Source: Chloroflexota bacterium
Lineage (GTDB): Bacteria; Chloroflexota; Dormibacteria; CF-121
DNA length: 55,814 nt
Direction: 5' to 3'
NCBI GenBank assembly: GCA_005889345.1
Contig: VBFR01000185.1
Coordinates: 1-55,814, forward strand
The notes under the pieces were generated by a model. That model searched no databases. It worked only from the letters and a program-made list of their open reading frames with translations, and was not told the origin of the DNA. The translations under genes and the position numbers were made by a program. Below, one piece after another: positions 37,539-55,726 of this stretch. Numbering within the stretch: the stretch's first letter is position 1; every line of letters starts with the position of its first letter.

Positions 37539-40436
37539 GTGAGGGAAGCGTCGACGGCGGTCGTGTCAGCAAAGGTGCTGATTCCCCAGGTGCATTCCCT
37601 TGCCCGCGAGCGCGTCGATGCCGTCCTCGCCCGAATCTGGCAGCATCGCGTCGGGCTCGTCGTCGCACCGGCGGGATCGGGCAAGAGCACGCTGCTGGCC
37701 GGCTTCGCCGCCTCGGCCAACGTGCCCGTCGCCTGGTACCGAGCCGAGAGCTGGGACGCGAAGACCACCACCCTGCTGAGCCATTTGCATTCCGCGTTCA
37801 CCGCGGCCCTGGGCTCCATCCCGGATGGCTGGGACTCCGTCGAGGCGGCGGCCCGAGCGCTCGAGTCCTGGTCGGGACGGCGCGCCGTGCTGATCATCGA
37901 TGACCTTCACACGCTCGAGGACAGCCCGGCCGAGCGCACGCTCGAACGCCTCATCGACTACGCCCCGCCAAGCATCGCCTTCTTGATCGGTTCGCGCGCG
38001 CTGCCCGGCTTCAATCTGTCGCGTCTGCGCGTCTCGGGATCGCTGCTCGAAATCGGCAGCGAGGACCTGCGCTTTCGTTCGTGGGAGGTCGAGCGCCTCT
38101 TCCGCGATTTCTATCGCGCTCCGTTGCCCCCCGAAGAGCTCGCTGAGCTCGCGCGCCGCACCGAGGGCTGGGCGGCCGGCCTGCAGCTGTTCCACCTCGC
38201 GACCCGCGGCAAGTCGCCCCAAGAGCGACGGCGCATTCTCACCGCCCTCGGCAGCCGGTCGCGGCTGACCCGCGAGTATCTGACCCGCAACGTCCTCGAC
38301 CAGCTGCCCGCCGAGCTGCGCTGGTTCCTGGTCCGGACCTGCGTCCTGACCCGGCTGACCGGGTCAATTTGTGACACATTCCTCGATCGCAGCAGCAGCC
38401 AGCAGGTGCTCGAGGAGCTCGAGCGTCGGCAGATCTTCACGACGGCGACCGACGATCGTGGCGGCTACCGCTATCACGAAGTGCTGCGCTCGCATCTCGA
38501 ACAAGTGCTCGTGGAAGAGCTCGGTGAGGTGCAGGCCCGGGCCGCCTACCGGAAGGCCGCGAGGCTGCTCGAGGCGAGCGGCGCCTTCCCCGATGCGGTG
38601 CAGGCGTATTCGCGCGGCGAAGACTGGGAGGCGGTGGACCGAATGCTCCATCACCAGGGGGGCGAGCTGCTCGAGGGACCGGACACCTGGATCGATGCGC
38701 TGCCGCCCGCGCTCCTCCGCCAGGATCCCTGGCTGATGCTCGGCAGCGCGCGGCGTCACCGGGCCGAGGGGCGCTGGCGTGAGGCGATCGACGCCTACCA
38801 CCGGGCCGAGCGCGTGTTCGGGTCGAGCGAGGCCGGGCTCATCTGCGCCGCCGAGCGCAAAGCGCTGGCCGGCTGGCTGGAGCCCGCCCCGATGCCGGGT
38901 AATGACTGGGCCGGTCTTTTGCGCAAGGCCGTGGCGCATGACCCGCTCGCCGCCAAGCAATTCGCTGGCCAGTTGCCCGAGGCGACCGGCAAGCTGAGCA
39001 TTGGGGTCATCTGCCTGTTGGCCGGACAAATGGATCAGGCGCGGCGCCACCTGAACGCGGCGGCCGACAGCCGCGACGCCACGGCGGCACTGGCGACGGC
39101 AGCCCGGCTCTGGGCCGGGGTCGCCGCGCTGCTCAGTGGTGACCTACAGGGGGTCTTCGACGTCGAGGAAGCGGCCGAGCGCGCCGAGGCGCTCGGGCTC
39201 GGCTGGGTGGCGCGGCTCGCGCGCGCCGCCCTGGTATTGAGTCAGCGGCCGGGGAGTGCGCGGGAGGCCGAGGGCCTGCGAGCCGCCAGCGATCGCGACG
39301 GCGATCGCTGGGGGAGTGCGCTGATCGGCTTGATGATCGGATGGGCGGCGATCTACGCCGGCGACAACGCGGTGGCGGCCCTCGAGCAGGCGACCGACAG
39401 CTTCCGGCAGTTGGGTGCTGGTGTCCTGGAGGCCTGGTCGCGCGCGCTGATCTCACTGGCCCTCGCCCGCATCGGTGCCCCCGAGGCGCGAGACGCGGCG
39501 CTGCAGGCGGAGAATCTCGCTCGCTATAGCGGCACGCCCGGCGCGCGCTACTTCCCCTACCTCGCCCTCGCCGAAATCGAGCCTGAGCGCGGGGCCGAGT
39601 ACCAGAGCCTCGCGGCCTCCGTGCAAGAGGAGTGCAGCCTCGCGCCCCTGGCCGCCCCCACGCCCGCGCCGGAGAACGTGATTCCCCTGGGTGTCGGTCG
39701 CTCGGTGCCGTCGCTGAGCATTCGGTGCTTCGGCGGCTTCAGCATCGCCATCAAGGGACGCCCGGTCGACCTGACCACCATCAAGCCGCGCGCGCGCGCG
39801 GTGCTGCGGCTGCTGGCCATCCACGCGGGCAATCCCGTGCACCGCGAGGTCCTGCAAACGGCGTTCTGGCCGGACGCCGATGCCGACACCGGCGCGCGCA
39901 ACCTTCATGTCGCTGTCTCCTCCCTGCGGTCGTGGCTCGAGCCGGGTGTCGGCCGGGGCGGGTCATCGCTCGTGCTGCGGGAGGGCGATGCGTATCGCCT
40001 CGCGATCCAGGCTGACGCCGAGGTTGATCTGGTGCAGTTTTCCAGGGCGCTCGCCGCCGCGAGGGTGGCGCGGCTACGCGGCGGGGTGGACGCGGTCATC
40101 ACGCACTTCCAGCAGGCGCTCGATCTTTATGCCGGCGAGCTGTTGCCCGAGGATGGGCCGGCCGAGTGGGCGATCGAACCGCGCGAACGGTTTCGCGCCG
40201 GCGCGCTCGAGGCCGCGCAGGGTCTCGCCGAATTGTTGCTCAAGCAGGGCGATCCCGCGGCGGCGGCCAACGCCTGCGCGACCGGGCTGTGGGTTGATCG
40301 GCTCCACGATCCGCTCTGGAAGCTCTTGATCCAGGCGCGCGAGCAGGCGGGCGATCCCGGCGCCGCCAGCCGAGCACGCCGCGATTACGCGCGCGTGCTC
40401 GAAGAGCTCGGCCTTACCGCCAGCTCGCGCGCTTAG
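37539..40436 (+). CDS. MalT-like STAND ATPase transcriptional regulator with C-terminal wHTH-BTAD (SARP) domain
   Basis: APAGSGKST, LIIDDLH, TEGWAAGL, YRYHEVLR; C-terminal IRCFGGFSI...FWPDAD...RNLHVAVSSLR...ALDLYAGELL. Confidence 0.9.
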   Translation: MREASTAVVSAKVLIPQVHSLARERVDAVLARIWQHRVGLVVAPAGSGKSTLLAGFAASANVPVAWYRAESWDAKTTTLLSHLHSAFTAALGSIPDGWDSVEAAARALESWSGRRAVLIIDDLHTLEDSPAERTLERLIDYAPPSIAFLIGSRALPGFNLSRLRVSGSLLEIGSEDLRFRSWEVERLFRDFYRAPLPPEELAELARRTEGWAAGLQLFHLATRGKSPQERRRILTALGSRSRLTREYLTRNVLDQLPAELRWFLVRTCVLTRLTGSICDTFLDRSSSQQVLEELERRQIFTTATDDRGGYRYHEVLRSHLEQVLVEELGEVQARAAYRKAARLLEASGAFPDAVQAYSRGEDWEAVDRMLHHQGGELLEGPDTWIDALPPALLRQDPWLMLGSARRHRAEGRWREAIDAYHRAERVFGSSEAGLICAAERKALAGWLEPAPMPGNDWAGLLRKAVAHDPLAAKQFAGQLPEATGKLSIGVICLLAGQMDQARRHLNAAADSRDATAALATAARLWAGVAALLSGDLQGVFDVEEAAERAEALGLGWVARLARAALVLSQRPGSAREAEGLRAASDRDGDRWGSALIGLMIGWAAIYAGDNAVAALEQATDSFRQLGAGVLEAWSRALISLALARIGAPEARDAALQAENLARYSGTPGARYFPYLALAEIEPERGAEYQSLAASVQEECSLAPLAAPTPAPENVIPLGVGRSVPSLSIRCFGGFSIAIKGRPVDLTTIKPRARAVLRLLAIHAGNPVHREVLQTAFWPDADADTGARNLHVAVSSLRSWLEPGVGRGGSSLVLREGDAYRLAIQADAEVDLVQFSRALAAARVARLRGGVDAVITHFQQALDLYAGELLPEDGPAEWAIEPRERFRAGALEAAQGLAELLLKQGDPAAAANACATGLWVDRLHDPLWKLLIQAREQAGDPGAASRARRDYARVLEELGLTASSRA

Positions 40437-41770
40437 TCCCGGACGCGAAACTCGACTTCGGCGAGTGCCACCGATGATGGCGATGCGCCGGCTGGCGCGT
40501 ATACCGACATGATGTGGATCTCGACGAAGGTCACCTGCTTGGCGTCGATCGCATAGAACTGCGCGTTCTTCGCGACCTTGGGATCCTCATCCTTCAGCGT
40601 CAGGTCGGTGGTGGTGCCGTTGGAGAAGACCAGGTGGACGTTGTGGGGCCGCGGCTGCGTGAGGAAATCGTCGGCTGCGGCGGTACCCGCGGCTCCCGCG
40701 TCGAAGCCGATCTGTGCCAGGTCGACCGGATCGTGAAAGGTCACCTTCAGGTACGGTCCGTGGTCGCTGGCCGCCGCCGCCCAGTAGGTATTGATGAACT
40801 TGTCGATCGCGAGGTTCGGGAGATGCCCGGCCGTCGAGGTGCTGGCCGAGGCGCCGGTCGCGTAGACGGCATCGTAATGCGGAAAGATCGCCTTGCGAAC
40901 CGTCGTGACGGCGCTCGTCACGCGATTGACGACCAGGTTGTGGAACGAGGGGACCAGGAGGAAGGCCAGCAGCCCGACGACGATGAGGGCGCCGAGCGCG
41001 AGGCGGACGATCCGCCAGACCATGCCCATGACGTTGGGCGGGCCCACCCGACGCGGCCGCCATCCGGCCTCGCGGGTGCGAACGCCGAAGAGCCTGCTGA
41101 AGAAGCGGCGGTACCACGGCAACCGGACCGCGATCGCCTCATCCAACGAGTTGCCGCAGCGTCGGCAGAAGTGCCGGACCGGATCGTTGCCCTCGCCGCA
41201 CTGGCCGCAGATGAGGTCGCCGGGATGCCGGCGGGTCGGCGGCTCCAGGGTGCGCGGCGCTTGACGTGGACGGGTCACCGACGGCGCCACGGACGTTGGA
41301 CGGCGTGAGATCGGCTCGTCCGCCTGGACGAGCGAAATGGGGGGCGGGTTCCCGGGAGAGACGGGGGCGGCAGGAGCCGCAACGCCGGCGAGGACGGGCG
41401 CCGGTGCGGGGGCGGCAGCAGGGGCCGGCGCGGCGGGTGCGGCAGAGGTCACCGGAACCGTCCACACGACCCGCGGTTCAGGGGCCGGGGCTCCCGCTGT
41501 GACGGGCGCTGGCGCGGCAACCGGGGCGGGCGCCGCATCGGCGTAGGCCGGCGGTGCCGTCTGTTGCGCCTCCTCGATCCCTACCGCGTGCTTGACCCTG
41601 TCGATCAGGCCGACATGGGCCGGCTCCGGTACCGGCTCGGGGGCGGGCGGTTCGGGCTCCGGCTGGGCGACCACGACGCGTTCCCCGGTCCATTCCAGGA
41701 ACTTCCCGCACGACCCGCAGAACGTGTCGCTGTCTTCGTTATGGTGCCCGCACTGCTTGCAGACGATCAC
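40433..41770 (-). CDS. CIS-associated double zinc-ribbon, single-TM protein with C-terminal beta-sandwich (discoidin/galactose-binding-like) domain
   Basis: CKQC..CGSC and CGQC..CRRC, Pro/Ala linker, TM IVRLALGALIVVGLLAFLLV, LAIDKFINTYW...VALAEVEF. Confidence 0.8.
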   Translation of the reverse strand: MIVCKQCGHHNEDSDTFCGSCGKFLEWTGERVVVAQPEPEPPAPEPVPEPAHVGLIDRVKHAVGIEEAQQTAPPAYADAAPAPVAAPAPVTAGAPAPEPRVVWTVPVTSAAPAAPAPAAAPAPAPVLAGVAAPAAPVSPGNPPPISLVQADEPISRRPTSVAPSVTRPRQAPRTLEPPTRRHPGDLICGQCGEGNDPVRHFCRRCGNSLDEAIAVRLPWYRRFFSRLFGVRTREAGWRPRRVGPPNVMGMVWRIVRLALGALIVVGLLAFLLVPSFHNLVVNRVTSAVTTVRKAIFPHYDAVYATGASASTSTAGHLPNLAIDKFINTYWAAAASDHGPYLKVTFHDPVDLAQIGFDAGAAGTAAADDFLTQPRPHNVHLVFSNGTTTDLTLKDEDPKVAKNAQFYAIDAKQVTFVEIHIMSVYAPAGASPSSVALAEVEFRVRD

Positions 41771-42372
41771 GCGCTAGTCACCTCCACAGCATCCGGTACT
41801 TTCGATCGTTTGACAAGCTGGACTTTGTGCGTCACGTGCGCCGGCTTCGCCGCCGCGACCAGCGCGTCGAGCCTCGTGGCGTTGATCGCGGCCGGATCGT
41901 CGACGGCGACCCGAACCATGAGGGCAAAATTCGGCGACCCGGGGAGCGCCTCGCCCGCGGTCGTCGAGGTTGCAATCCCACCGGTATCGATGATCTCGAC
42001 GGTGCCGCCGGTGAGGGTCTCGATCTGCGCCTTGAGTCCCTTGACGGTTCCGCGCATTCGATAAAACTCGAAAGCAGCCGCCAGCACCGCGCGACGGCGC
42101 TCGACCGACCACGAGTCGTCGAGGGCGAGCCCGAACCAGCTCCCCAGCCATTCCAGGAAGTCGGGCGGGGTCAGCCAGGGATCGAAGTAGGTGGGCAGGT
42201 TATCCATCGTGGCAAAGATCGGCGCCAGTGCCGCATCGAAGGCGGACATGAAGCGCTGGGTGAAGCCGTCTTCCTGGAAGAGGGCCGGCAGCGACTCGCC
42301 CAGCGGGTGCGGGCTGATCAGCGTCCGCACCAGGCCGCGCCGATGGTTGAGCGTCGGAGCCTCCGCGATCAT
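41767..42372 (-). CDS. CIS baseplate/phage tail protein (P2 gpI-like)
   Basis: LPALFQED.F..RF..AFD, YFDPWLTPPDFLEWLGSW, RGTVKGL, KPAH. Confidence 0.88.
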   Translation of the reverse strand: MIAEAPTLNHRRGLVRTLISPHPLGESLPALFQEDGFTQRFMSAFDAALAPIFATMDNLPTYFDPWLTPPDFLEWLGSWFGLALDDSWSVERRRAVLAAAFEFYRMRGTVKGLKAQIETLTGGTVEIIDTGGIATSTTAGEALPGSPNFALMVRVAVDDPAAINATRLDALVAAAKPAHVTHKVQLVKRSKVPDAVEVTSA

Positions 42373-44258
42373 GCGCCCTCCACCAGCACCTGGTGCTCGT
42401 ACGAGTAGACGAGGGCGTGTGGCTCGATGACGAGCCGCTGGACCGCCTGGCCCCGCTGGCCCGTCACCGGATCGGCCCCGAACAACCGGGCGTCCTCGAC
42501 GAGCTCGGTGCCGCGCAGGCCCTGCAGGACGGAGTAGACCTCGCCGACGTGGACCGGCCGGCCGAAGGGCCAGCCATTGCGGTCCGGTCCGCCGGTGACC
42601 GGATGAAAGTAGTGGAAGAGCGCGTCGAGCGCTTCCGCCTGCAACCGTGACGGGTTCGCACTCGCGCGCGGCCGCAGCTTGGCGACCACCGTCACGCCGC
42701 GGTAGACCGGCGGCTCGACGAGGACTCGCGTGCCGATCACGCGGGAGTCCTCGAGGCGGTGGGCGATGCGCTGCAGCGTCTCTTCGGCGGGCACGAGCTG
42801 CTCGAAGCGCAGCCGGCCGTCGGTGCTCCCCGCCGCCGGCACCACCAGAATGCGCACGCCACCGGCGTCTGCGCCGTCGCCCGCGGTGACACATCGGACG
42901 CGCGCCACTTCCGGCGCCGCCTCGCGCGCCAGGTGCTCGTAGTCTTCCATCGTCACGGCTCGATCGCGGGTGCGCAGCACGATGGGGCCGCGCACTTTGG
43001 CCCCCTCGATGTCTTCGCCGTCGACGCCGCCCTCCGCGGCCCGGCGATTTTGCACCCTGGACACGTACGGGATCGATGACTTGAGGACGGTGACGGTGTT
43101 GCGCGCGACGTTCCCTTTCTGGCCGCCCCCGATGAGGTAGGAGCGCAGGCGGAGGCGCGAACCCTTGGATGGCACCGCGCCGTAGTTCCGGAAGGCGCCG
43201 TCGGGCTCGCGGACGCCTGGGCCGAGCTGCACCTCGCCGCTGACAGCGTCGAGCACAAAGTGGCGATCCTCCGCGGTGCTGTCGACGAAATGCTGCGCCT
43301 GCTTCCACTCCTGCCAGCCATCGATGCCGCTCACCTCGAGGACGTTCGCGGCGCCCCCGGGGACGACCGGCCGGTGCTTGAGGGCGAATCGTTGGCCCGG
43401 GACTCCTTCCGACGCCCCAAGGAGTTCGTTCTCCACCAGCTCGGCGTTGACCGCCTCGGCCGTGCCGCCGATGGTGAACGCCGTGAGGCCTTTGATGATG
43501 GGCGAAGCACTGTAAGTCGGTTGATCGGGTTCCGGCTTCAGGACGCGCGCCCGCAGCCACCCGGCGCGTTGCTGCTGGATGACGGATACCGCGTGGCTCT
43601 TCGGGACGTGCAGCACGACGTCGCCATCCCGGTTGAGGCCGCCGGTGCCATCCCGATCGACTTCGCATGGTGACCAGGCGTAGCCATCCCAGGTTTCCCA
43701 GACCACGGCGCACGATGGTACGGCCTCCGAGAGGCCGACCAGGAGCACGTCATCCGGCTTTGGCACCTTGTCGAAGCAGAAGAACGACGTGCGGGCCTCG
43801 AGGGCCTCGGTGTGGTCGCTGACCTCTTTCTCGCCGGCTAGCGACGAGGCGAGACGCGAGAGGGTGCAGGGGACGATCGGCAGGTCACCGATCGTGGTGA
43901 AGACGATCGCCTCGTCGGTCTCGGTGCGAACCGTGGCGGCCTGCGTTCCGGGACGGATATGGATGGTCCCTGGTTGCGGGCCGGCCAGCCAGAAGGTGAT
44001 CGCCGCGCGCGCCGCGGTCGGCGGAAAGAGCCGCACGCCGATCAGTTCGAGAAATTTGATGTAGTTGCGCTCGGGGACACGATTCAGCCGGTACAGCACC
44101 TGGTCGGTCATCCAGGCGAAGGTCTCGATCAGCGTGACACCGGGGTCCGACACGTTGTGGTCGGTCCACTCCGGGCAGCGCTGCTGCACGAGGCGCTTGG
44201 CATCGTCGACGAGGTCCTGGAATCGCCGATCGTCGAGGTTCGGGACCGGAAGTGCCAT
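42369..44258 (-). CDS. CIS baseplate assembly protein (baseplate J/Afp11-like)
   Basis: LPVPNLDDRRFQDLVD, PEWTDHNVSDPGVTLIE, RAVTMEDYE, GWPFGR. Confidence 0.93.
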   Translation of the reverse strand: MALPVPNLDDRRFQDLVDDAKRLVQQRCPEWTDHNVSDPGVTLIETFAWMTDQVLYRLNRVPERNYIKFLELIGVRLFPPTAARAAITFWLAGPQPGTIHIRPGTQAATVRTETDEAIVFTTIGDLPIVPCTLSRLASSLAGEKEVSDHTEALEARTSFFCFDKVPKPDDVLLVGLSEAVPSCAVVWETWDGYAWSPCEVDRDGTGGLNRDGDVVLHVPKSHAVSVIQQQRAGWLRARVLKPEPDQPTYSASPIIKGLTAFTIGGTAEAVNAELVENELLGASEGVPGQRFALKHRPVVPGGAANVLEVSGIDGWQEWKQAQHFVDSTAEDRHFVLDAVSGEVQLGPGVREPDGAFRNYGAVPSKGSRLRLRSYLIGGGQKGNVARNTVTVLKSSIPYVSRVQNRRAAEGGVDGEDIEGAKVRGPIVLRTRDRAVTMEDYEHLAREAAPEVARVRCVTAGDGADAGGVRILVVPAAGSTDGRLRFEQLVPAEETLQRIAHRLEDSRVIGTRVLVEPPVYRGVTVVAKLRPRASANPSRLQAEALDALFHYFHPVTGGPDRNGWPFGRPVHVGEVYSVLQGLRGTELVEDARLFGADPVTGQRGQAVQRLVIEPHALVYSYEHQVLVEGA

Positions 44259-44290
44259 CGCTCAGCCTCCTCCTGCAGATTTGTTGTTCG

Positions 44291-44692
44291 TCATGCCGTC
44301 TCCGCCGGGATCACGTAAAAGGGGAATACGAGGTTGCGGGGATCGTTGGTCTCGCCGAGCGCGTAGCGGATGTCGATGTAGATGATGCTCGAGTCCTCGG
44401 TGTCGAAACTCACCAGGACGTCGCGAACCTCGATGCGAGGCTCCCAGCGACGAAGCGCGGCCCGGACGGCCGCGGCCACGCGGGCGGCGGTCTCCGTGTC
44501 GGCGCTGTCGAAGACGTAGTCATGAATGGCGCAGCCGAACTCGGGCCGCATCGGCCGCTCGCCGATGGCGGTGCCCAGGATCAGGCGGATGCTCTCCTCG
44601 ATTTCCTGCTCGCGTGACACCAGTGCGATCCGTCCGGTCGGGTCGGTCCGCAGGGGAAACGCCCAGCCGGAGCCGATGAATTCTTCGCTCAT
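44291..44692 (-). CDS. gp25/GPW-like baseplate protein (Afp9-like)
   Basis: GSGWAFP, IRLILGT..GERPMRPEFGC, RWEPRI, NLVFPFY. Confidence 0.93.
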   Translation of the reverse strand: MSEEFIGSGWAFPLRTDPTGRIALVSREQEIEESIRLILGTAIGERPMRPEFGCAIHDYVFDSADTETAARVAAAVRAALRRWEPRIEVRDVLVSFDTEDSSIIYIDIRYALGETNDPRNLVFPFYVIPAETA

Positions 44693-45021
44693 TGCGCGAT
44701 TACCTTCGTCTGGCCCGCCGACCCGATCATCATGGGCGTGCCGGTCGGCACGCAGGTCCCGGCCACCGGAGGCAAGGCGAGCAACACCGGCATCCCACCA
44801 ACGAGGACCTTCGTGCTGCCGGACGGGATGATGCCGCTGACGCACGGACCATTCGCAACCGGCGGTGGGGGAAAGGCGCAGCCGGCCACCACGTAAGACG
44901 CGGGGATGGTCACCACCGGCTGACTGCCGACCATCACCTTCGGACTGACGGTCGTGCACTGTCCCTGCCCGCCGTGCATGCAGGTCACCGTGCCGCCCAT
45001 GTTGACGATTGGTCCGGGCAT
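44689..45021 (-). CDS. PAAR-like spike tip protein
   Basis: TCMHGG, AGCAF...GPC, ..C...GQTKV metal-ligand pattern; located between VgrG and gp25. Confidence 0.8.
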   Translation of the reverse strand: MPGPIVNMGGTVTCMHGGQGQCTTVSPKVMVGSQPVVTIPASYVVAGCAFPPPPVANGPCVSGIIPSGSTKVLVGGMPVLLALPPVAGTCVPTGTPMMIGSAGQTKVIAQ

Positions 45022-47507: not shown

Positions 47508-47522
47508 CGCTTGCCGTTGCTC

Positions 47523-47951: not shown

Positions 47952-47961
47952 CGTCTCCTCC

Positions 47962-49944
47962 TCAGCGCAGGTCGGTCAGGAAGCCCGCGCGCTCCCGATC
48001 GACCAGTAGTTCTGTTTTCAGCCGGGTGCGGATCCGGTCGTAGAGCTTGCCGGCGAGCTCGTCCATGTCCGTCTCGGCGGAGGAGTGGCTGCCCAGGGGT
48101 GAGGCGACGCCGCTTATCGTGGAGCCGGCCGCGCTGGCGGCCGATGAGCCTGCGGACGAGGCCATGCTCCTCGCACCGGATGAAATCGAGTCGTACCAGG
48201 CGCCCTGGACGGTAGACGCCCCACCATCCGTGGGAGATTCGGTGGACTCCGACTCCGCTTCGCCAGCGGTCTGCGTTGTGCGCTGCACCGCGACGACGCG
48301 TGATGGCGCCAGCGGGAGCCTCGCTGATGTCCCTCGCTCCCCCTGCGGGGGTGAGTCGGCGTAGGGGGTGTCTTCGCTCGCTCTCATGACATGAAGCTCA
48401 CGCCCTCCTTGCTGCGGTTGGTCGAGGTCGGGAGCATCGCTCGTCCGCTGCACGAAGCCCGGGCTCGCCAACGGAAGCGCCATACCCTCGACCTGCGGCG
48501 GTTCCGCGAAGGCGCCGTCGCTCGCCCTCATCACCGGGACTGCCTGCGGGTGATAGGGCTGCTTGCTCTCCGTGGAAGGAACCGCCCGTTCCCCTTGCGC
48601 CGAAGGCTCGGCATAGGGCATAGAGGCACTGGTCGACGCCGCTCGTTGGGCCGTCACCGTCGGCCGTAGCGGCCGGGCGCCGACGAGCGGGGCGATCACA
48701 GTGTCTCGACTGGATGCTGGTGAGGCGGTGGCGACGCGGCCCGGTGATTCTGACACCAGCGGCCACGTCGACGGTGAGAGATTCGCAAGGGCGACCGGCG
48801 GCGAGGACGGCAAGGCCGGCGCAAGACGCTGCAGGGCCGACGGCTCGGACGGCGACGCATCATCGGCGGCCTCTGCCAGGGACGTCGCGCTCAGCTGGAC
48901 CGACGGTGCTCGCGCCGGGATCGATGGGCGGGCGAGCGGCAAGGCCAGGCGGGGACCATCAACGGCGTCAGTCGAGGGCGGGGGCGGCGCGCCCGGCAGC
49001 GACGCTCTCCATTCCGTGACGCCAGACGAGAGCTCCACCGGAGCCGTCGGAGCTGTCGGAGCCGTCGGAGCCGTCGGAGCCATCGGAGCCAGGGGTAGTC
49101 CGATTGCCACCCGCTGCGCCACCGCGTGCGTCGGCAGTGGTCCAACCGGGGATGCGTCGATCGGCGCCGGCGTCACGGAGGAGGCGTCGATCGAATCGCG
49201 GCTGCCGGCGGAGACGTCAATCGGGTCCTTCTCCCTCTGGGGTGCCGGAGCGAGGGGGAGTTCCGCGCGCTGCACGCTGTGGTCCGGAACCTGCCTGATG
49301 GGGGCTCCGAGGCCCATCCGTCGCGACTGACCCAGCGTGAGACGCTGGGCCGGCACCAGCGCCGGCGCGGCGTCGGATGGCTCATCGGTCGGGGTCGAGG
49401 TGGCAAGAGCAGCCGACACGGCTTTTGACCGCTGTGCCACGGGAGCGATCGGCGCCGGATCGGCGCCTGGGGGCAGGCTGGTCAGTCGCTGCGTCACGGG
49501 CTCCGGTGCAACTACCGGAAGCTCGACGGCGGCGGCCGGAGGTGCGCTCATGGGAACAGGGGTGGGCCGCGCCAGGTCGGGCGCGGCCTCATCCCCATCC
49601 CACTCCCCCGACTCCGTTACCGCGCCGGCCACGCTGCGCTGCAGGCGTGGGCGCGGGATCATGGCCGGGCCGTCGCTGCGTGTCGTCGGCCGGGCCAGGG
49701 CCAGGACCAGACCTGGTGGTGCGTCGGCGCTGACCTGATGGCCCATCGTGCCAGTCGTAACCGATGGATCCTGATGGGTCGCCAGGTCATCGCTGAACTC
49801 ATCACTCGGTGCGGTGAGCGGGTGCGCGCCAACGAACCGCTGGATGGGCGGCAATCCCGCCCAGTCCCGGCGGATGACGGGCGCCGGCACCGGGCGCGGT
49901 CCCTCCGCCGCCGGTGCCTCAACCTTCCGTCGAAACGGCCACAT
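47962..49944 (-). CDS. CIS-associated low-complexity Pro/Ala-rich protein with repeated QR motifs
   Basis: About 11 xQR motifs, LPLA repeats, ordered C-terminus DMDELAGKLYDRIRTRLKTELLVDRERAG; position between the two tube genes. Confidence 0.8.
   Translation of the reverse strand: MWPFRRKVEAPAAEGPRPVPAPVIRRDWAGLPPIQRFVGAHPLTAPSDEFSDDLATHQDPSVTTGTMGHQVSADAPPGLVLALARPTTRSDGPAMIPRPRLQRSVAGAVTESGEWDGDEAAPDLARPTPVPMSAPPAAAVELPVVAPEPVTQRLTSLPPGADPAPIAPVAQRSKAVSAALATSTPTDEPSDAAPALVPAQRLTLGQSRRMGLGAPIRQVPDHSVQRAELPLAPAPQREKDPIDVSAGSRDSIDASSVTPAPIDASPVGPLPTHAVAQRVAIGLPLAPMAPTAPTAPTAPTAPVELSSGVTEWRASLPGAPPPPSTDAVDGPRLALPLARPSIPARAPSVQLSATSLAEAADDASPSEPSALQRLAPALPSSPPVALANLSPSTWPLVSESPGRVATASPASSRDTVIAPLVGARPLRPTVTAQRAASTSASMPYAEPSAQGERAVPSTESKQPYHPQAVPVMRASDGAFAEPPQVEGMALPLASPGFVQRTSDAPDLDQPQQGGRELHVMRASEDTPYADSPPQGERGTSARLPLAPSRVVAVQRTTQTAGEAESESTESPTDGGASTVQGAWYDSISSGARSMASSAGSSAASAAGSTISGVASPLGSHSSAETDMDELAGKLYDRIRTRLKTELLVDRERAGFLTDLR
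49039..49090 (-). repeat. 9-bp tandem repeat (about 5.8 copies) encoding APT
   Basis: cggagccgt-type units. Confidence 0.9.
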
Positions 49945-49947
49945 ATC

Positions 49948-50112
49948 CTACGACTCCTGCTCTTCCGCGAGGCGCCGATTGATGCCGGCGATCTCTTCGA
50001 CGACGCGCTGGCGGACCGGATGCTCTAGATCGAGAATCTCTTCGAACGACCAGTGCAGGTGATACGCCACGTACGCGATCTCCTCGAAGAGGCGGTCGGT
50101 CGCGTACGTCAC
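49948..50112 (-). CDS. Small CIS-associated protein (DUF6760-like), 54 aa, absent from the ORF track
   Basis: Manual translation MTYATDRLFEEIAYVAYHLHWSFEEILDLEHPVRQRVVEEIAGINRRLAEEQES; GTGA overlap with the upstream gene. Confidence 0.88.
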   Translation of the reverse strand: MTYATDRLFEEIAYVAYHLHWSFEEILDLEHPVRQRVVEEIAGINRRLAEEQES

Positions 50113-50528
50113 AACCCCCCCAGGCGACCACCTGCCATGTCTACGGTGAACTGGTGCTTGCAGTCCGGACAGGTGACGGCCGCCTGCGTGTGCCCCTCCT
50201 GGTTGATCCTGCGATAGAGGTCCTGGAGGAACGCGAGGTCGGAGGCGAAGAGCCCTTCGATGGTCCCGGAGGTCACCTGCGGCACGGTGCCGAGCCTGGT
50301 GACCACCCGGGACAGCAGCAGGACCGTCAGGTAAGCCTCGTTGTCGCGCACCCGTGGGTCGCGCTGGGGGAGGATCTCGTCACGAGCGGTCGCCAGCCGC
50401 ATCACACCCTCGCGATGCACCGTCCCGGCCTCGTCGACGTAGCCGCGCGGCAGAGCGAAGGCGAATTCGGTGTGAAGTGGAGCGGAGGTCGAACGCTCGA
50501 CCTCCGCCATGCTGGATACCGGACTCAC
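50109..50528 (-). CDS. CIS tail assembly chaperone-like protein with C-terminal CxxC
   Basis: TEFAFALPRGYVD, MRLATARDE, LFASDLAFLQDLY..IN, CPDC. Confidence 0.85.
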   Translation of the reverse strand: MSPVSSMAEVERSTSAPLHTEFAFALPRGYVDEAGTVHREGVMRLATARDEILPQRDPRVRDNEAYLTVLLLSRVVTRLGTVPQVTSGTIEGLFASDLAFLQDLYRRINQEGHTQAAVTCPDCKHQFTVDMAGGRLGGL

Positions 50529-50986
50529 TTGACCCGCTCGAAGCCTTCCATGACGATCGTGGCTTCCTCAGTGACAACCTCGTTGGACCCCGCCTTGAGC
50601 GCCCCGGTCGTGAGCTTGGAGGGCCAGGCGTTGACGAAGTTCCAGCGTGCGATCTCGCCGGCTTCGTAGTCGTAGAGGATCACCGACCCGTTCTTGCGGG
50701 CTTCCTTGACCTTGCCGTCCAGCGCCGCCTTGTGCCACTTGTAGAGGTCCATCGAGACGTTCTTGGCTCGCTTCAGCGTCAGCGTCGGCGTCTTGTGCGC
50801 GCCCGGGATCTTCTTGATGATCAGCTTGCCGTCGGGGCCGTTCTCCTTCAGCTCGGTGACATCCATCTCGGAGGTCAAGCCGCCAACCTCGGTGAACTGT
50901 GCGATGGTGGTGCCGTCGATCTCGATCGCGAAGTTACGTGCGGCGATTGCGTCGTTGTTCGAAACATTCGGAACGCCTGCTGCCAT
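50525..50986 (-). CDS. CIS tail tube protein (T4 gp19-like), copy 1
   Basis: F.IEIDG, FTEVGGL, RKNGSVILYD, RWNFVNAWPSK. Confidence 0.94.
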   Translation of the reverse strand: MAAGVPNVSNNDAIAARNFAIEIDGTTIAQFTEVGGLTSEMDVTELKENGPDGKLIIKKIPGAHKTPTLTLKRAKNVSMDLYKWHKAALDGKVKEARKNGSVILYDYEAGEIARWNFVNAWPSKLTTGALKAGSNEVVTEEATIVMEGFERVK

Positions 50987-50996
50987 CTATCCCTCC

Positions 50997-52526
50997 TTAT
51001 TCGCTGAGCGATGTGCCGCCCGAGAACTGGGCGATCTTGAAGACGACGAACTCCGCGGGTTTGACCGGGGCGATCCCGATCTCGACGATGAGCTGGCCCG
51101 CGTCGATCGTCTCCGCGGTGTTCACCTCGCCGTCGCATTTGACGTAGAACGCTTCGCTGGGCGTGGCTCCGAAGAGCGCGCCGTCGCGCCAGACGCGGAC
51201 CAGGAAGGCGCTGATGGTGCGCTTGACCCGTTCCCAGAGCGCCATGTCGTTGGGCTCGAAGACCACCCACTGGGTGCCCAGCAGGATGGAACCCTCGATG
51301 TAGTTGAAGAGCCGGCGGACGTTGATGTACCGCCACGCCGGATCGCTGGAGAGGGTGCGCGCGCCCCAGACCCGGATGCCGCGACCGGGGAAGGCGCGAA
51401 TGACGTTGATCCCCTGCGGGTTCAGCAGGTCGTGCTCGCTCTTGGTGACCTGCAGCTCGAGGGAGATGGCGCCGCGGACGACTTCATTCGCCGGTGCCTT
51501 GTGCACGCCGCGGGTGTCGTCGCTGCGCGCCCAGATGCCGGCCATGTGGCCGCTCGGCGGAACGAAATTCGCCTGGCCCGCGAGCGGATCGAAGACCTTG
51601 ACCCACGGCCAGTAGAGGGTGGCGTACTTCGAGTCGTAGCCCGCCTTGTCGACCCGCCACTCGCGGATCTGCTGCGCGTTCAGCCCGGGCGGGGCATCGA
51701 GAATGGCGACCCGGTCGCCCATCAGCTCGCAGTGGGCGATCATCGCCAGCTGTACGGCCTTGACCTGGTCGGCGTCGATCATGCCGCGCTGGTACGCGGC
51801 CATCAGGTCGGGGACGCTGAGCATCGTGACGGTGTCGACGGCTTCGAGACCGGCAAATCCGGTGCGGTCGGCAGAGTTGCCCACGTACTCGTCCGGGGTG
51901 ACCCGGGCGGGCATCGTGGCGCCGCCGCCCTGAAGCGTAACCTTGCCCGGGGCGGGGACCTTCTCCAGTGCGCCGGCGGTCCCGATCTCCTCGAGCTGGA
52001 TTAGCTTCGACGCGGTCTTGACAGCAGTGACGACGTTGTTCTTGCCTTTGCGCGTCGTGACGTTGTCGTACTCTTCGCGATCCTTGCCGCGCGTGATGAT
52101 CAGCTTGAAGGTGTCTTCCGCGGCCTGCGAGGCCTCAGCGACCTCGACCTGGATGTCGTTGCCGGGCTGACCGCCCTCCAACGCCAGGACGCGATATCCG
52201 GCCAGCGACTTGTCCTTCGCGCTCGCCAGCTCCGCCTGGGCTGCGGGGGCGTGGCCGTCCGCGCCGATGCGAACGATGTACGCGGACCCACCGCCGTTCA
52301 GGAAGTAGCCATAGACGGAGTGCGCGAGGTACGACCCTTCAAGGAAGCCACCAAACGCCTGCGAGAACTGGCTCCAGTTGGTGACCAACGTTGGGCTGTT
52401 GACGGGACCCTTCTCGGCGAGACCGACGAAGGCCGCCGTTGCGGTCCCAACACCCTCGATCGGGCGTGAGCCGGCTTCGACCTCCTCTACGTATACACCG
52501 GGCGATAAGTAATTGGGCATGGGCAA
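50997..52526 (-). CDS. CIS contractile tail sheath protein
   Basis: YLSPGVYVEE, PPSGHMAGIWARSD..RGVHKAPAN, VWGARTL, YINVRRL, VFEPND, APVKPAEFV. Confidence 0.96.
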   Translation of the reverse strand: MPMPNYLSPGVYVEEVEAGSRPIEGVGTATAAFVGLAEKGPVNSPTLVTNWSQFSQAFGGFLEGSYLAHSVYGYFLNGGGSAYIVRIGADGHAPAAQAELASAKDKSLAGYRVLALEGGQPGNDIQVEVAEASQAAEDTFKLIITRGKDREEYDNVTTRKGKNNVVTAVKTASKLIQLEEIGTAGALEKVPAPGKVTLQGGGATMPARVTPDEYVGNSADRTGFAGLEAVDTVTMLSVPDLMAAYQRGMIDADQVKAVQLAMIAHCELMGDRVAILDAPPGLNAQQIREWRVDKAGYDSKYATLYWPWVKVFDPLAGQANFVPPSGHMAGIWARSDDTRGVHKAPANEVVRGAISLELQVTKSEHDLLNPQGINVIRAFPGRGIRVWGARTLSSDPAWRYINVRRLFNYIEGSILLGTQWVVFEPNDMALWERVKRTISAFLVRVWRDGALFGATPSEAFYVKCDGEVNTAETIDAGQLIVEIGIAPVKPAEFVVFKIAQFSGGTSLSE

Positions 52527-52740
52527 TCTCCTCCCTGTTGATGGCCGTCAGGTACGGTCCGAGCGTCGCATCGGCGCTCGTTCGCCACAAGGGACGAGCG
52601 GGCCAGTGAACGGGTAAGCAGCGATGCCCGAAGGGACGGCCGGCCGTGCTCGAGGCTGCCCGTTCAGGCAGGAACTTGACCCCAAGGGCTGCCCGCAGGC
52701 GACTTGTGAGGCGCCGCCGCAACCGCAAATCTAGAGGGCG

Positions 52741-53571
52741 ATGATCCAGGACGTGGATGAGTCCCTGCGCGCCCTCGTAAAACGAGATGCCCTCAATGGA
52801 TCAAAGGCCGACATCGCCTTCGATGCGCCCAATAAAGAGTGGTCGTCGCGGCGCAATACGCCCACAGTCGATCTGTATCTCTACGACATCCGCGAGGACC
52901 TCGAGCAGCGTGAGGTGATGTGGGAGGACATTCGCGGCGATAGCCGAGATTCCCGATTGATCACCGAGCGCCGGCCGCCGCCACGTCGCTTCAAGCTCTC
53001 CTACCTCGTCACGGCGTGGACGCAGCGGCCTGAGGACGAGCACCGGCTCCTCTCGTCGCTGCTCGCGTGCTTTTTGCGCAATCCCATCATTCCGGCCGAC
53101 GCGTTGAGCGGGGTACTCGCCCAGGCGCGGCAGCCGATCCTCCTCAACATCGCGCTCCCACCACCACAGGACCGGTCGATCTCCGACGTCTGGTCGGCAC
53201 TGGGCGGCGAGCTCAAGGCCTCCCTCGATCTAGTTGTGAATGCGCCGTTCGAGGTCAACCTGGCGATTCCCGCCGGTCCGCCGGTCCTGGAAGAGCCCCG
53301 TTTCAGCTTCGCGGGTCCCGATGGCGAGAGCGAGGACGCGACCACGCCGGCGGCGCGTGGCGGCAGAGCTCGTCGAGGCGCGGTTGCTGCCGGTGCCGCG
53401 AAGCCGGTGGGTGCCCCTGGACCCGGCGGGCCAAAAGCCTCCGGGCGGCTGCAGCCCGGCGAGCCGGCCAACAAGCCTGGTGTGCCGCCCGACCAGGAAG
53501 AGATGGTTCGCTCGGGGAAAGAGAAGCAGCCCGGCCGCATTCTGCGCATTCGCGGCGTCAACCGCTCGTAG
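52741..53571 (+). CDS. DUF4255/Pvc16 (Afp16-like) CIS cap protein
   Basis: MIQDVDESLRAL, FDAP..EW, LYLYDIRED, LSYLVTAW...DEHRLLS. Confidence 0.92.
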   Translation: MIQDVDESLRALVKRDALNGSKADIAFDAPNKEWSSRRNTPTVDLYLYDIREDLEQREVMWEDIRGDSRDSRLITERRPPPRRFKLSYLVTAWTQRPEDEHRLLSSLLACFLRNPIIPADALSGVLAQARQPILLNIALPPPQDRSISDVWSALGGELKASLDLVVNAPFEVNLAIPAGPPVLEEPRFSFAGPDGESEDATTPAARGGRARRGAVAAGAAKPVGAPGPGGPKASGRLQPGEPANKPGVPPDQEEMVRSGKEKQPGRILRIRGVNRS

Positions 53572-53575
53572 GCGA

Positions 53576-55726
53576 ATGAGCGTACATTCGGGCGTTCTCC
53601 CTCCACCGCTTGCGGGGGAGGGTCGGGCTGGGGGTCTCGATGAGTCACTGACCCATGTGCTTCGGCGTCTCGAGTTAATCGAGGCGCGCGTCCGGGCCGC
53701 CGTCGCTCGCCGCCGTGCGACCGATCCGGAGACCGACGATCGTTTCCGCGGGCTTTACATCTCGCAGGGTCATGTCGACCGACTACTCGCGGACAAATCG
53801 GTCCCGGCGCCACCCGACGCTGGCGCAGCGAAGGCGCGCGACGAGGCCGAGGCCGCGGCTGACGCCGCCGAGCAAAACGGTGCCGACCTTCGGCTGCGCC
53901 GCCTGGCCCGCACCTTCAATCTGGACGAAATCGACGTCGAGCTGCTCTTGATCGCGATGGCCCCGGACGTCGACGCGCGCTTCGAGCGCCTCTACGGCTA
54001 TCTGCAAGATGACGTCTCCCGGCGCCGCGCCAGCGTCGGACTCGGGCTCGAGTTGTGCGGTTTGCCATCGAGCAGCGCCTATGCACGGAGCCGTCTCGCG
54101 GCGGGCGCTCCCCTGGTGGACGAGTACCTGGTGCAGGTCGAAGAGAACGAACGGCCGGTGCTGACGCGGCCGCTGCGCGTCCCGGACCGCGTGGCGGCAC
54201 ATCTGCTCGGGAGCGATATTCCGGATCCTGTTGTCGCCGCCCTGGCGTACCAATGCGAACAAGCCAAGCCCGACCAGGCGGCAACCCTGGTTCGCTGGAT
54301 GACGGAAGAATCTCCCTCCCCCTCTGGGGGAGGGCAGGGTGGGGGCAGGCTTGCCTACATCCGTGAACGCCCCGGCGCATCCGGAGCGGCGCTCGCCTCG
54401 AGTGCTTTCGCACAGCTAGGCCGTCCGACGCTTGCGTTGGATCTCGAGCGCCTGCGGAGCGAAGATGACGTGCCGCTCGTGGCCGCCTTAGCGGCTCGCG
54501 AAGCCGGTCTCACGGGAGCCGGCATTGTGGCGGGTCCGGTTGAGGTCCTGATCGCCAGGGGACTCCCCGCAGTCCGCGCCTTTTCTGAGATGCCGGCGCT
54601 CGTGGTCCTGGTGGGCGCGCGAAGCTGGGACCCGGGCTGGGCGCGCGACGTCCCCTTCATCTGCGAGGCTCCCATCCCCGACGCCCTCCAGCGCGCCGAG
54701 CTCTGGCGCCGGAATCTCAACGGCGACACACCGCCTGACCTCGACCTGGCCGGCACGATGGCGCAGTTTCGCCTGACCGCTGAGCAGGTCCATCGCGCGG
54801 CGCGGGCGGCGCGGATGGACGCCCACGCTCGCGAGATCCCGCTCAACGAAGAGGAGCTCAAGGCCGGCGCCCGCGCCCAGAACGCCGCCGGCCTCGAGCG
54901 GTTGGCGCGCCGCATCCAGCCCGCAGTCGACTTTGCCGACCTGGTTCTGCCCCCCGATACGATGGCACAGCTCAAGGAGCTCCTGACGCGGGCGCGCTAT
55001 CGCGAGCAGGTGCTCGATGTCTGGAAGATGGGCGGCCCGTCCGCGCGGCGGCGTGGGCTAACGGCGTTGTTCGCCGGGCCCTCGGGCACTGGTAAGACGA
55101 TGGCGGCCGAGGTGCTCGCCAGCGAGCTCGGTCTTGACCTGTATACAGTCGACCTGGCGACCGTTGTCGACAAGTACGTCGGCGAGACCGAAAAGAACCT
55201 CGACCGCATCTTCGCCGAAGCGGAGCGTATCAACGGCGTGATCCTCTTCGACGAGGCCGATGCGCTGTTTGGCAAGCGTTCCGAGGTCAGCGACGCGCAT
55301 GACCGCTATGCCAACGTCGAAGTGGCCTACCTGTTGCAGCGGATGGAGCTGTTCGACGGCATCGCGATCCTGGCGACCAACCTTCGGGCCAATCTGGATG
55401 AGGCATTCACGCGCCGGTTGGATTCCCTGGTCGATTTTCCAGAGCCCGAAGCGGAATATCGTCGGCGGCTCTGGGAGCGCAGCCTGGGGAGCGACATGCC
55501 TCGGGCCGCCGAACTCGACCTGGATTTTCTCGCAGAATCGTTCAAGCTCTCTGGCGGCGCGATCCGCAACATCGCGGTGGCGGCCGCCTATGCAGCTGCC
55601 GAGGCCAAGCACCCGCTTGATATGGGCGACCTGGTGCGGGCTACCCAGCGCGAGTATCTGAAGCTTGGCCGGATGGTCGTCGAATCAGAGTTCGGGCCCT
55701 ACTACGGGTTCCTGATCCAGGCCTAA
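53576..55726 (+). CDS. CIS AAA+ ATPase (Afp15/Pvc15-like)
   Basis: YGYLQDDV, ALFAGPSGTGKTMAAE, VVDKYVGETEKNL, LFDEADALFGKR, DRYANVEVAYLLQRME. Confidence 0.94.
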   Translation: MSVHSGVLPPPLAGEGRAGGLDESLTHVLRRLELIEARVRAAVARRRATDPETDDRFRGLYISQGHVDRLLADKSVPAPPDAGAAKARDEAEAAADAAEQNGADLRLRRLARTFNLDEIDVELLLIAMAPDVDARFERLYGYLQDDVSRRRASVGLGLELCGLPSSSAYARSRLAAGAPLVDEYLVQVEENERPVLTRPLRVPDRVAAHLLGSDIPDPVVAALAYQCEQAKPDQAATLVRWMTEESPSPSGGGQGGGRLAYIRERPGASGAALASSAFAQLGRPTLALDLERLRSEDDVPLVAALAAREAGLTGAGIVAGPVEVLIARGLPAVRAFSEMPALVVLVGARSWDPGWARDVPFICEAPIPDALQRAELWRRNLNGDTPPDLDLAGTMAQFRLTAEQVHRAARAARMDAHAREIPLNEEELKAGARAQNAAGLERLARRIQPAVDFADLVLPPDTMAQLKELLTRARYREQVLDVWKMGGPSARRRGLTALFAGPSGTGKTMAAEVLASELGLDLYTVDLATVVDKYVGETEKNLDRIFAEAERINGVILFDEADALFGKRSEVSDAHDRYANVEVAYLLQRMELFDGIAILATNLRANLDEAFTRRLDSLVDFPEPEAEYRRRLWERSLGSDMPRAAELDLDFLAESFKLSGGAIRNIAVAAAYAAAEAKHPLDMGDLVRATQREYLKLGRMVVESEFGPYYGFLIQA
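53597..53634 (+). repeat. REP-like palindromic element, copy 1, in frame within the ATPase gene
   Basis: ccctccaccgc-tt-gcgggggaggg hairpin followed by tcgggctggggg. Confidence 0.7.
54312..54345 (+). repeat. REP-like palindromic element, copy 2, in frame within the ATPase gene
   Basis: ccctccccc-tct-gggggaggg perfect 9-bp stem followed by cagggtggggg. Confidence 0.75.

Follow-up and report, generated by a model that had tools for sequence, protein, structure and literature searches.

The closest described relatives of the gene cluster analyzed here are the contractile injection systems (CIS) of Streptomyces. As described by Casu et al. (2023), the Streptomyces clusters belong to class IId, encode two tube homologues and have no Afp13 fibre, no typical Afp14 tape measure and no ClpV (PMC10066040). 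In the S. coelicolor system (CIS-Sc, sco4242–sco4260; PDB 8BKY, 9GTP and 9GTS), SCO4243 is Cis12 and the gene directly after it, SCO4242, codes for CisA (PMC12237407, supplement). CisA, published in 2025, is a membrane protein needed for CIS-Sc contraction and function (PMC12237407), and Sco4242 had been described earlier as having a segment that spans the membrane and a sugar-binding domain that is conserved (PMC10066040). The class IId members imaged in Streptomyces, Roseiflexus and Deinococcota are all reported as cytoplasmic (PMC10066040; PMC12998442). For Chloroflexota, class IId systems have been on record since dbeCIS, and images exist of some (PMC12998442). Here we analyze contig VBFR01000185.1, a stretch of 55,814 bp that we call the window, which carries a CIS cluster at positions 40433–55726.

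Dormibacteria are an abundant but uncultured soil lineage. The window comes from an uncultured soil member of this group, and the CIS is chromosomal. The region is probably a class IId ('Streptomyces-type') system with a CisA-linked self-firing mode. It represents a new host for a known system, not a new system. In the literature searched, we found no paper pairing names that begin with Dormibacter or Dormiibacter with 'contractile injection'.

Relationship to described injection systems

We searched against the PDB six CIS parts that are present in the S. coelicolor and S. venezuelae CIS models, and all six had the CIS-Sc models 8bky, 8bl4, 9gtp or 9gts as their best match. A preliminary description of the window, made from the sequence alone, had proposed a Streptomyces-type system, and these matches bear it out. 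The sheath, which is single-copy in the genome (genome search), matched best to 8bky_A/9gtp (6.4e-199) and 8bl4_V/9gts (7.1e-196) over residues 3–505, followed by 9ezm (5.4e-114), Pvc2 (2.5e-53) and Afp2 (3.5e-48). The Afp, PVC, AlgoCIS and Anabaena systems matched it only at 1e-44 to 1e-53. The first tube protein had its best match in the 149-aa tube chain of 8bl4/9gtp/9gts and the second in the 140-aa chain 9gtp_a. Two of these entries, 9GTP and 9GTS, stem from Casu et al. (2025; PMC12237407) and model CIS-Sc.

The gene content of the window also fits the description of class IId Streptomyces clusters by Casu et al. (2023). Its part list is that of CIS-Sc (dbeCIS class IId) and of the S. venezuelae and S. 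lividans (SLP) systems, and the order is largely the same. Window and CIS-Sc have in common the series sheath, Cis1a and Cis1b tubes, LysM initiator, VgrG, gp25, baseplate J, gpI and then CisA, with the cap and AAA ATPase alongside. Both have a DUF4157 protein beside the cluster, and both are devoid of an Afp13 fibre and a typical Afp14 tape measure. The window has, in addition, a PAAR-like gene, which among the Streptomyces clusters of Casu et al. (2023) is known, as Cis10, in S. venezuelae only (PMC10066040). The window differs from Streptomyces in its regulators, one of which carries a C-terminal BTAD domain on a MalT-like NTPase, and in its host, which belongs to another phylum-level lineage. 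Furthermore, its baseplate J is 53–58% identical to that of Streptomyces loci, and in the sheath tree it falls in a clade labelled mostly Chloroflexota or Dormibacterota, apart from the Actinomycetes rows.

The cytoplasmic CIS of Roseiflexus, Thermus relatives and Deinococcus are likewise class IId and non-actinomycete, and their particles have been imaged free in the cytoplasm (PMC12998442). Roseiflexus is reported without close cisA homologues (PMC12998442), unlike the window, which has one. No Roseiflexus or Deinococcus locus was present among the 80 named loci that we collected around the best baseplate J relatives (from a 9-row J alignment), so the window system is a separate branch, nearer to Actinomycetota.

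The canonical extracellular CIS (eCIS), such as Afp of Serratia, PVC of Photorhabdus and AlgoCIS, have homologous sheath, tube, baseplate, cap and ATPase proteins and the same DUF4157/eCIS_core marker. They have three sheath genes, in contrast to one in the window, which has neither the Afp13 fibre nor an Afp14-type tape measure and carries a membrane adaptor in the fibre slot. Compared to type VI secretion systems (T6SS), the window sheath is single and phage-type rather than split into TssB and TssC, and the ATPase has WHD and AAA domains with no Clp-family match above the cut-off. Pfam scans of the window open reading frames (ORFs) named no T6SS membrane-complex or ClpV family, these being general scans in which T6SS families were not searched by accession.

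A probable CisA-family membrane protein in the fibre slot

The preliminary description had recorded no tail fibre. This holds, and the fibre slot contains instead a gene for a 445-aa membrane protein whose start codon overlaps the stop codon of gpI. The protein has a zinc ribbon (residues 4–21), a disordered Pro/Ala linker, a second zinc ribbon (188–205), a membrane helix (about 247–272) and a discoidin/CBM32-like domain (about 300–445). It contains one hydrophobic segment (about 247–282), and an Arg-rich stretch precedes the helix, from which we infer that the N-terminus is cytoplasmic. The AlphaFold2 (AF2) model is consistent with this layout: residues 35–180 are disordered, residues 247–272 form a helix and residues 300–445 fold as a beta-sandwich with a predicted local distance difference test score (pLDDT) of 70–93. 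Foldseek matched the C-terminal domain to CBM32 and F5/8 type C (discoidin) modules (119 matches at E ≤ 0.001; top match 7blg, 5.9e-6). The NCBIfam model NADase_discoid, a NADase-type glycan-binding discoidin, scored 50.5 bits against a cut-off of 38 (2.2e-13). A PDB search with the protein gave nothing useful.

Proteins encoded after gpI in Streptomyces loci are 25–31% identical to the window protein. With tblastn, it matched the gene at this position over its full length in four Streptomyces loci at 1e-10 to 8e-23, among them L079 (7.6e-23), L070 (1e-17) and L087 (1.8e-10), and in two pieces in L092 (1.5e-11 and 6e-06; BLASTP against the L092 protein, 9e-15). An alignment of 11 actinomycete proteins from the post-gpI position has both zinc ribbons, a PWWRR stretch, the helix and the motifs of the C-terminal domain in common with the window protein. 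NADase_discoid was found in all 11 as well as in the window protein, and hhalign aligned the Dormibacteria and actinomycete alignments with a probability of 100% (E 3.9e-49, 223 columns). Position, architecture and homology to the Streptomyces-locus proteins thus identify the 445-aa protein, as far as sequence can tell, as a CisA-family adaptor. Like CisA (SCO4242), it has a post-cis12 place, a long disordered N-terminal arm predicted to be cytoplasmic, one membrane helix and a conserved outer C-terminal domain. The two zinc ribbons are conserved across the family here, whereas the word 'zinc' has no occurrence in the main text of the CisA paper (PMC12237407).

We ran a profile of the conserved part of CisA on the 80 related loci, 75 of which had a gpI match and 60 of these at least 2.5 kb of sequence after it. 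The profile matched 49 of the 60, starting less than 1.2 kb after gpI in 46. It was found in all 19 Chloroflexota-labelled and all five Dormiibacterota-labelled loci (24 of 24 with enough downstream sequence) and in 25 of 36 labelled Actinomycetota, 11 of the 25 being in the profile's own seed. A term search of the supplement to PMC12237407 found no Chloroflexota row in its reciprocal-BLAST list.

Gene content of the cluster

The cluster, which encodes a complete CIS, lies on two divergent strands, with a minus-strand operon from the sheath to the CisA-like gene and a plus-strand operon of the Pvc16 cap followed by the AAA ATPase (Table 1). Stop/start overlaps of the ATGA type, typical of coupled genes, join neighbouring genes. 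The longest ORFs overlap in this high-GC DNA. Both gpI and gp25 truly begin inside longer frames, at 42372 and 44692, and so probably does the ATPase, at 53576. The ATPase start is uncertain between an ATG at 53576 and a GTG near 53657; the protein is 82–93% identical to four orthologues from the genus (alignment).

Table 1. Features of the CIS cluster and its immediate flanks in the window.
Feature	Coordinates	Strand	Length	Matches and remarks
STAND-type regulator	37539–40436	+	965 aa	Pfam AAA_22, Trans_reg_C, BTAD; NCBIfam MalT N-terminal part 4.1e-51
CisA-family bitopic membrane adaptor (putative)	40433–41770	-	445 aa	Pfam Zn_Ribbon_1 and DZR; NCBIfam NADase_discoid; tail-fibre slot
gpI baseplate wedge (Cis12-like)	41767–42372	-	201 aa	Tail_P2_I 2e-15; TIGR02242 1.9e-29
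Baseplate J (Cis11-like)	42369–44258	-	629 aa	Baseplate_J 1.4e-14; TIGR02243 1.2e-147; PDB 9gtp_1K 4.8e-217
gp25-like sheath initiator (Cis9-like)	44291–44692	-	133 aa	GPW_gp25 8.2e-26
Spike-slot small protein, probably PAAR/DUF4280-like (Cis10-like)	44689–45024	-	111 aa	PAAR_motif E 0.0019, below cut-off
VgrG-like spike (Cis8-like)	45021–46820	-	599 aa	Phage_base_V 9.6e-25; Phage_GPD; NCBIfam VgrG_rel 1.3e-184
Tube initiator, LysM-like C-terminus (Cis7-like)	46824–47507	-	227 aa	CIS_tube 1.6e-24; PDB 9gtp_P 2e-43
Second tube homologue/tube adaptor (Cis1b-like)	47523–47951	-	142 aa	T4_gp19 4.6e-35; PDB 9gtp_a 9.4e-36
Pro/Ala/Ser-rich protein, tape-measure slot	47962–49944	-	660 aa	No family match
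DUF6760 small protein	49948–50112	-	54 aa	PF20546 1.2e-13; 54–94% identity across related loci
Tail-assembly-chaperone-like protein, C-terminal CxxC	50109–50528	-	139 aa	phrog_508 'tail assembly chaperone' 5.4e-6; 49–92% identity across related loci
Main inner tube (Cis1a-like)	50525–50986	-	153 aa	T4_gp19 1.4e-34; PDB 8bl4_v/9gtp/9gts 3.7e-24
Contractile sheath (Cis2-like)	50997–52520	-		Phage_sheath_1 1.4e-25; Phage_sheath_1C 1.6e-20; probable ATG at 52520
Divergent intergenic region	52521–52740		220 bp	Between structural and cap/ATPase operons; promoters presumed from gene layout only
Cap/tail terminator (Pvc16/Cis16-like)	52741–53571	+	276 aa	Pvc16_N 3.7e-41; PDB 9gts_0A 4e-53
AAA+ ATPase, N-terminal winged helix (Cis15-like)	53576–55726	+	716 aa	WHD 9.2e-31; AAA 5.7e-25
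eCIS_core (DUF4157) gene, 3' end	55723–55812	-	29 codons and stop	Convergent; cut by contig end

Scans with Pfam, NCBIfam and PHROG models recovered the parts that the preliminary description had listed (sheath, two tubes, chaperone, LysM initiator, VgrG, gp25, baseplate J, gpI, Pvc16 and AAA ATPase). Three genes within its range had been left unnamed: the CisA-like gene, the DUF6760 gene and the gene for the 660-aa protein. The scanned ORFs of the window (44 with Pfam, 21 with PHROGs) gave no fibre, capsid, terminase, portal, holin or endolysin family, in agreement with the earlier report of no tail fibre, holin/endolysin or capsid in the window. The LysM initiator matched Pfam LysM only at 0.17, yet it matched 9gtp_P, a chain named 'LysM domain-containing protein', at 2e-43. 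A PDB search with the 139-aa protein gave nothing useful. In the cap protein, the Gly/Pro-rich tail (residues 243–274) drew spurious whole-sequence PDB matches to polyubiquitin chains; no single stretch passes, and the matches reflect a short-motif artefact multiplied by repeats.

The PAAR-like assignment, also made in the preliminary description, stands only in part. The gene is real, as indicated by its position and by a ratio of nonsynonymous to synonymous substitutions (dN/dS) of 0.03, and neighbours of the protein in the ESM Atlas carry DUF4280/PAAR at 0.92–0.95. The family call is weak, with the PAAR_motif match below the cut-off. The protein has no PDB match, its AF2 model (6-row alignment) is unusable at a mean pLDDT of 47, and a profile found a counterpart in five of the 80 related loci, plus one weak match.

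The 660-aa protein in the tape-measure slot had no Pfam, NCBIfam, PHROG or PDB match. Its C-terminus is conserved, and only the C-terminal part aligns to distant loci. The protein contains 10 copies of a hydrophobic-Q-R/K motif ([VILFMA]-Q-[RK]) against 0.8 expected, a count reached in none of 2000 shuffles. Of 52 related loci, 38 show the excess too in the orthologous slot, Streptomyces among them, and none of 300 shuffles reached the observed count. The motif may be a tube-lumen or packaging contact. We did not meet it in the literature, in which no dedicated search for it was made. One variant, VQR, occurs three times in the C-terminal tail of the eCIS_core protein of a same-genus genome (G007).

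The regulator next to the CisA-like gene has the domain order MalT-like NTPase, TPR, OmpR-type DNA-binding domain and BTAD, which is unusual for a Streptomyces antibiotic regulatory protein (SARP). The two genes converge, with stop codons that overlap by 4 nt, and in most related loci tblastn likewise found a convergent regulator homologue immediately downstream of the CisA-like gene. The regulator has 66–79% nucleotide identity in Chloroflexota- or Dormibacterota-labelled loci.

We also identified a G+C-rich hairpin repeat of 36–40 nt (consensus near TCCCTCCCCCGCTTGCGGGGGAGGGCAGGGTGGGGGC) with window copies at 53597–53636 and 54311–54346. The first copy lies at or just after the ATPase start, and the second is an in-frame insert in the ATPase linker that is missing in the four genus orthologues. 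The repeat occurs in at least 97 places on 65 contigs of the genome (21-nt core, at most four mismatches), for example at C69:26936 and C69:27146, and soil-metagenome contigs pile up on both window copies. A cargo-gene fragment at the end of contig C69 carries two more, and many copies are near contig ends. This position and the metagenome pile-up suggest that the repeat may cause assembly breaks.

Host, distribution and selection

The window is one entire contig (C155) of a 3.23-Mb assembly in 306 contigs, with 65.8% G+C, 88% completeness and 3% contamination. Its first 37 kb carry ordinary chromosomal genes, such as those for an HD/GAF/GGDEF protein, a 2415-aa beta-helix/Ig protein, the nuo operon, ResB, Tad pilins, an EamA transporter and an IS481 transposase. 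The five nearest baseplate J loci (83–87% identity) are from metagenome-assembled genomes (MAGs) titled Candidatus Dormiibacterota, Chloroflexota or Chloroflexi, and homologues of the CisA-like protein come from MAGs named Candidatus Dormibacteraeota, Chloroflexi or Actinobacteria. The earlier remark that the other genes of the host do not look like those of Streptomyces is thereby confirmed, as these relatives point to uncultured soil Dormibacteria. Two of the related loci (L019 and L017) have the flanking regulator, EamA and Tad genes in common with the window at 69–79% nucleotide identity. Furthermore, 10 soil metagenome runs contain at least half of the sampled words of the locus.

Several neighbouring genes were recorded in passing. 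An IS481-family transposase gene (35952–37151, plus strand) separates the EamA gene from the CIS regulator; this copy is missing in L019 and L017, where EamA abuts the regulator. Upstream are genes for a 916-aa signalling protein with HD_5 (HD-GYP-like), GAF and GGDEF domains (2611–5361, plus strand) and for the 2415-aa protein (5500–12747, plus strand), which combines right-handed beta-helix and NosD-like domains with four Big_3_5 Ig-like domains. It is probably a surface protein of the cell that has nothing to do with the CIS. We considered it as a fibre and rejected it because of its distance of 28 kb, on the far side of the nuo operon, and the lack of any phage-family match.

Searches for the sheath found it in 13 of 24 other genomes of the genus and in 1 of 16 genomes from three other families of the class, there at 38% identity. 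A quick maximum-likelihood tree of the sheath was inferred from 48 rows, namely the window and every locus with a full sheath; it is rooted at the midpoint with no outgroup and carries MAG labels as given by the submitters. The window groups with L019 and L020 (support 100) inside a 26-row clade (support 99) that comprises 18 Chloroflexota, five Dormiibacterota and two Actinomycetota rows in addition to the window. Acidimicrobiia rows form the next branch; the opposite side of the tree contains Streptomyces and other Actinomycetes. The direction of transfer is not readable from this topology.

We calculated dN/dS against the L019 orthologues for 13 cluster genes, a set that leaves out the ATPase and Pvc16. 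The ratio was 0.03–0.21 for 11 genes (0.08 for the 139-aa protein), 0.26 for the CisA-like gene and 0.45 for the 660-aa protein. With ratios of 0.03–0.26 in 12 of the 13 genes, the cluster is maintained by purifying selection. Within the CisA-like gene, the first zinc ribbon had a ratio of 0.03, the second ribbon with the helix 0.15 and the outer domain 0.39. The flanking regulator had a ratio of 0.10. Synonymous divergence (dS) from L019 was mosaic across 40433–52526, with values of 0.41–0.54 for the sheath, first tube, 139-aa and DUF6760 genes, 0.69 for the PAAR-like gene, and 0.88–1.14 for the baseplate genes, VgrG and the regulator. Within the genus, a sheath-tube module and a baseplate module may have recombined, as this mosaic suggests.

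The region beyond the contig end

Only 88 bp follow the ATPase in the window, and they fall in the last 29 codons of an eCIS_core gene. In G007, whose sheath is 99% identical, the gene converging on the ATPase codes for a 260-aa eCIS_core protein (PF13699, formerly DUF4157; 2.6e-34). The last 88 bases of the window align with this gene, and one frame translates to its last 29 codons. A 57-aa ORF at 55641–55814 was rejected as the eCIS_core gene: it had no match to the eCIS_core protein of G006 (E 1.4), and the true frame of the stub was found elsewhere. DUF4157 is described as a marker of eCIS toxins and their neighbours, and GerE and BTAD regulators as companions of eCIS operons (Geller et al., 2021). 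The S. lividans DUF4157 protein Sle2 is reported to bind a Cis1b-type tube initiator and to partner a large packaged effector, Sle1 (Nagakubo et al., 2026; PMC13277306).

Seven loci of the genus have DNA past the ATPase, and five of them (G003, G006, G007, G021 and G023) carry the eCIS_core gene there. Of the other two, G005 (L100:3–2147) encodes a protein longer than 715 aa that has a VanY domain (4.6e-12), and G018 encodes a DUF222 protein, before their contigs end. The stretch from eCIS_core to a LuxR-type regulator codes for 1035-aa and 673-aa proteins of no known family in G003 (L015:9662–15961), the larger with four hydrophobic segments; for five small ORFs in G006 (L013:11576–14183); and for a 1132-aa protein with a weak match to M15 peptidoglycan peptidases in G021 (L097:3112–6510). 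Across the genus, the stretch between the ATPase and LuxR genes is a strain-variable cargo region. In the genome of the window, the LuxR orthologue (88–96% identical) is at the end of contig C69, together with the first 215 codons of a gene whose product is homologous to the 1035-aa protein of G003 (252 aligned residues, 48% identity). As an eCIS_core stub ends the window and the LuxR gene and a cargo fragment end C69, the cargo module sits in the assembly gap.

The absence of a recognisable toxin, as reported in the preliminary description, is true of the window but is an artefact of a contig that ends in the eCIS_core gene, since same-genus genomes carry variable large proteins at this place. 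Fibre or lysis genes just beyond the window had been named as findings that would speak against an intracellular system. The longer same-genus loci have none there, only the eCIS_core gene, the variable large proteins and the LuxR regulator, and no fibre or lysis gene was found in either of the two genus genomes with contigs that cover the full distance from LuxR to the BTAD regulator. We also rejected as fibres the NHL/Ig-repeat surface proteins that relatives and C69 encode on the far side of LuxR, since these genes lie outside the regulator on the opposite strand and their products are of an ordinary cell-surface type.

Mode of action and alternatives

By analogy with Streptomyces, cytoplasmic assembly is most likely, followed by docking to the producer's own membrane through CisA and firing there. 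The intracellular location proposed in the preliminary description is likewise a fair reading of the CisA homologue and the class IId membership. Particles would assemble on a baseplate of VgrG, the PAAR-like tip, Cis7, Cis1b, gp25, J and I. The tube would grow around the 660-aa repeat protein with the aid of the 139-aa and DUF6760 proteins, the sheath would form around the tube and Pvc16 would cap it. The eCIS_core protein may load a strain-variable large effector, whose gene would lie in the unassembled gap. Under stress, CisA would engage the baseplate at the producer's own membrane with its cytoplasmic zinc-ribbon arm and contact cell-wall glycan with its outer discoidin domain, and contraction of the sheath would drive the tube and cargo into or through that membrane, harming the producer. 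Expression is probably under the convergent BTAD/MalT-like regulator and the LuxR-type regulator on the other flank. It is possible, if on balance doubtful, that this CisA-linked IId machine serves stress- or phage-triggered self-destruction, with the discoidin domain sensing damage to the cell's own wall glycan and the cargo, in some relatives a peptidoglycan peptidase, swapped between strains.

Several points weigh against the reading as a CisA-linked class IId system that fires in the producer. Particle location, release and the effect of firing are carried over from relatives, as genes alone were read here. The role in Streptomyces is tied to hyphal development and may not apply in Dormibacteria, a group for which we know of no evidence of hyphal growth. 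The Streptomyces comparators are called CisA by position and architecture, and homology was measured against them, not against SCO4242. The CisA paper likens the C-terminal domain to periplasmic substrate-binding domains (PMC12237407), whereas our AF2 model gives a discoidin/CBM32 fold. The effector lies outside the assembly; PF13699 was not found elsewhere in the genome, but it was also silent in all 14 control genomes. Finally, none of the runs listed as containing the locus is on record as RNA. In three runs labelled RNA-Seq (possibly DNA), contigs at 90% likeness were mostly from relatives, and one spans the divergent intergenic region, so these contigs do not bear on transcription.

Other modes of action would place the target outside the producer. 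A weapon that CisA anchors permanently at the membrane to deliver cargo into neighbours on contact, in the manner of T6SS or of the thylakoid-anchored CIS of cyanobacteria, would be compatible with the conserved membrane adaptor and its outward glycan-binding domain, with the AAA+ ATPase of the cluster and with a variable, possibly wall-active cargo in relatives. The general Pfam scans, which named no T6SS membrane-complex or ClpV family, without a search by accession, argue against such a device, which we consider unlikely. Quite unlikely, too, is a released particle, freed by lysis of the producer, that attacks other cells through an unrecognised receptor-binding part encoded in the gap or carried on the baseplate. 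The cluster does belong to the eCIS superfamily and has its eCIS_core marker, the region past the ATPase is unassembled here, and the VanY/M15 peptidoglycan-peptidase proteins that some genus relatives encode there could act on the walls of other cells. Yet neither the window nor the genus loci that span the LuxR-to-regulator region have an Afp13-like fibre or a lysis cassette, the closest characterised relatives are not released, and the fibre slot codes for a membrane-anchored protein that cannot travel with a free particle.

The same machine could also play a non-lethal role, its cargo tuning the membrane proteome or metabolism of the producer under competition. Sle1 and Sle2 of the orthologous S. 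lividans system provide a precedent (PMC13277306), and in relatives the eCIS_core adaptor is next to large non-enzymatic proteins such as the 1035-aa protein of G003. The peptidoglycan-peptidase domains of other relatives point instead to envelope damage, and we consider this role improbable. The least credible reading, a decaying and non-functional remnant of a horizontally acquired cluster, would agree with the patchy distribution of the sheath in and beyond the genus and with the IS481 transposase beside the cluster. It is at odds with 15 intact genes with coupled starts and stops, with the low dN/dS in all but one of the genes compared and with synteny conserved across phyla, and we regard it as highly improbable.

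Implications

The analysis places a putatively CisA-dependent, fibre-less class IId injection system in Dormibacteria and indicates that CisA-family adaptors accompany class IId systems well beyond the actinomycetes. The accepted view of how the machine works is unchanged, and the extension is modest. The CisA profile is present in all the Chloroflexota- and Dormibacterota-labelled loci that extend far enough downstream, which speaks for CisA-mediated membrane docking as a trait general to one branch of the lineage. The two conserved zinc ribbons and the discoidin domain are the parts of CisA worth testing. If the self-destruction reading were true, CisA-dependent firing would be ancestral to the lineage shared by the Chloroflexota-related phyla and Actinomycetota, and not an adaptation to Streptomyces development.

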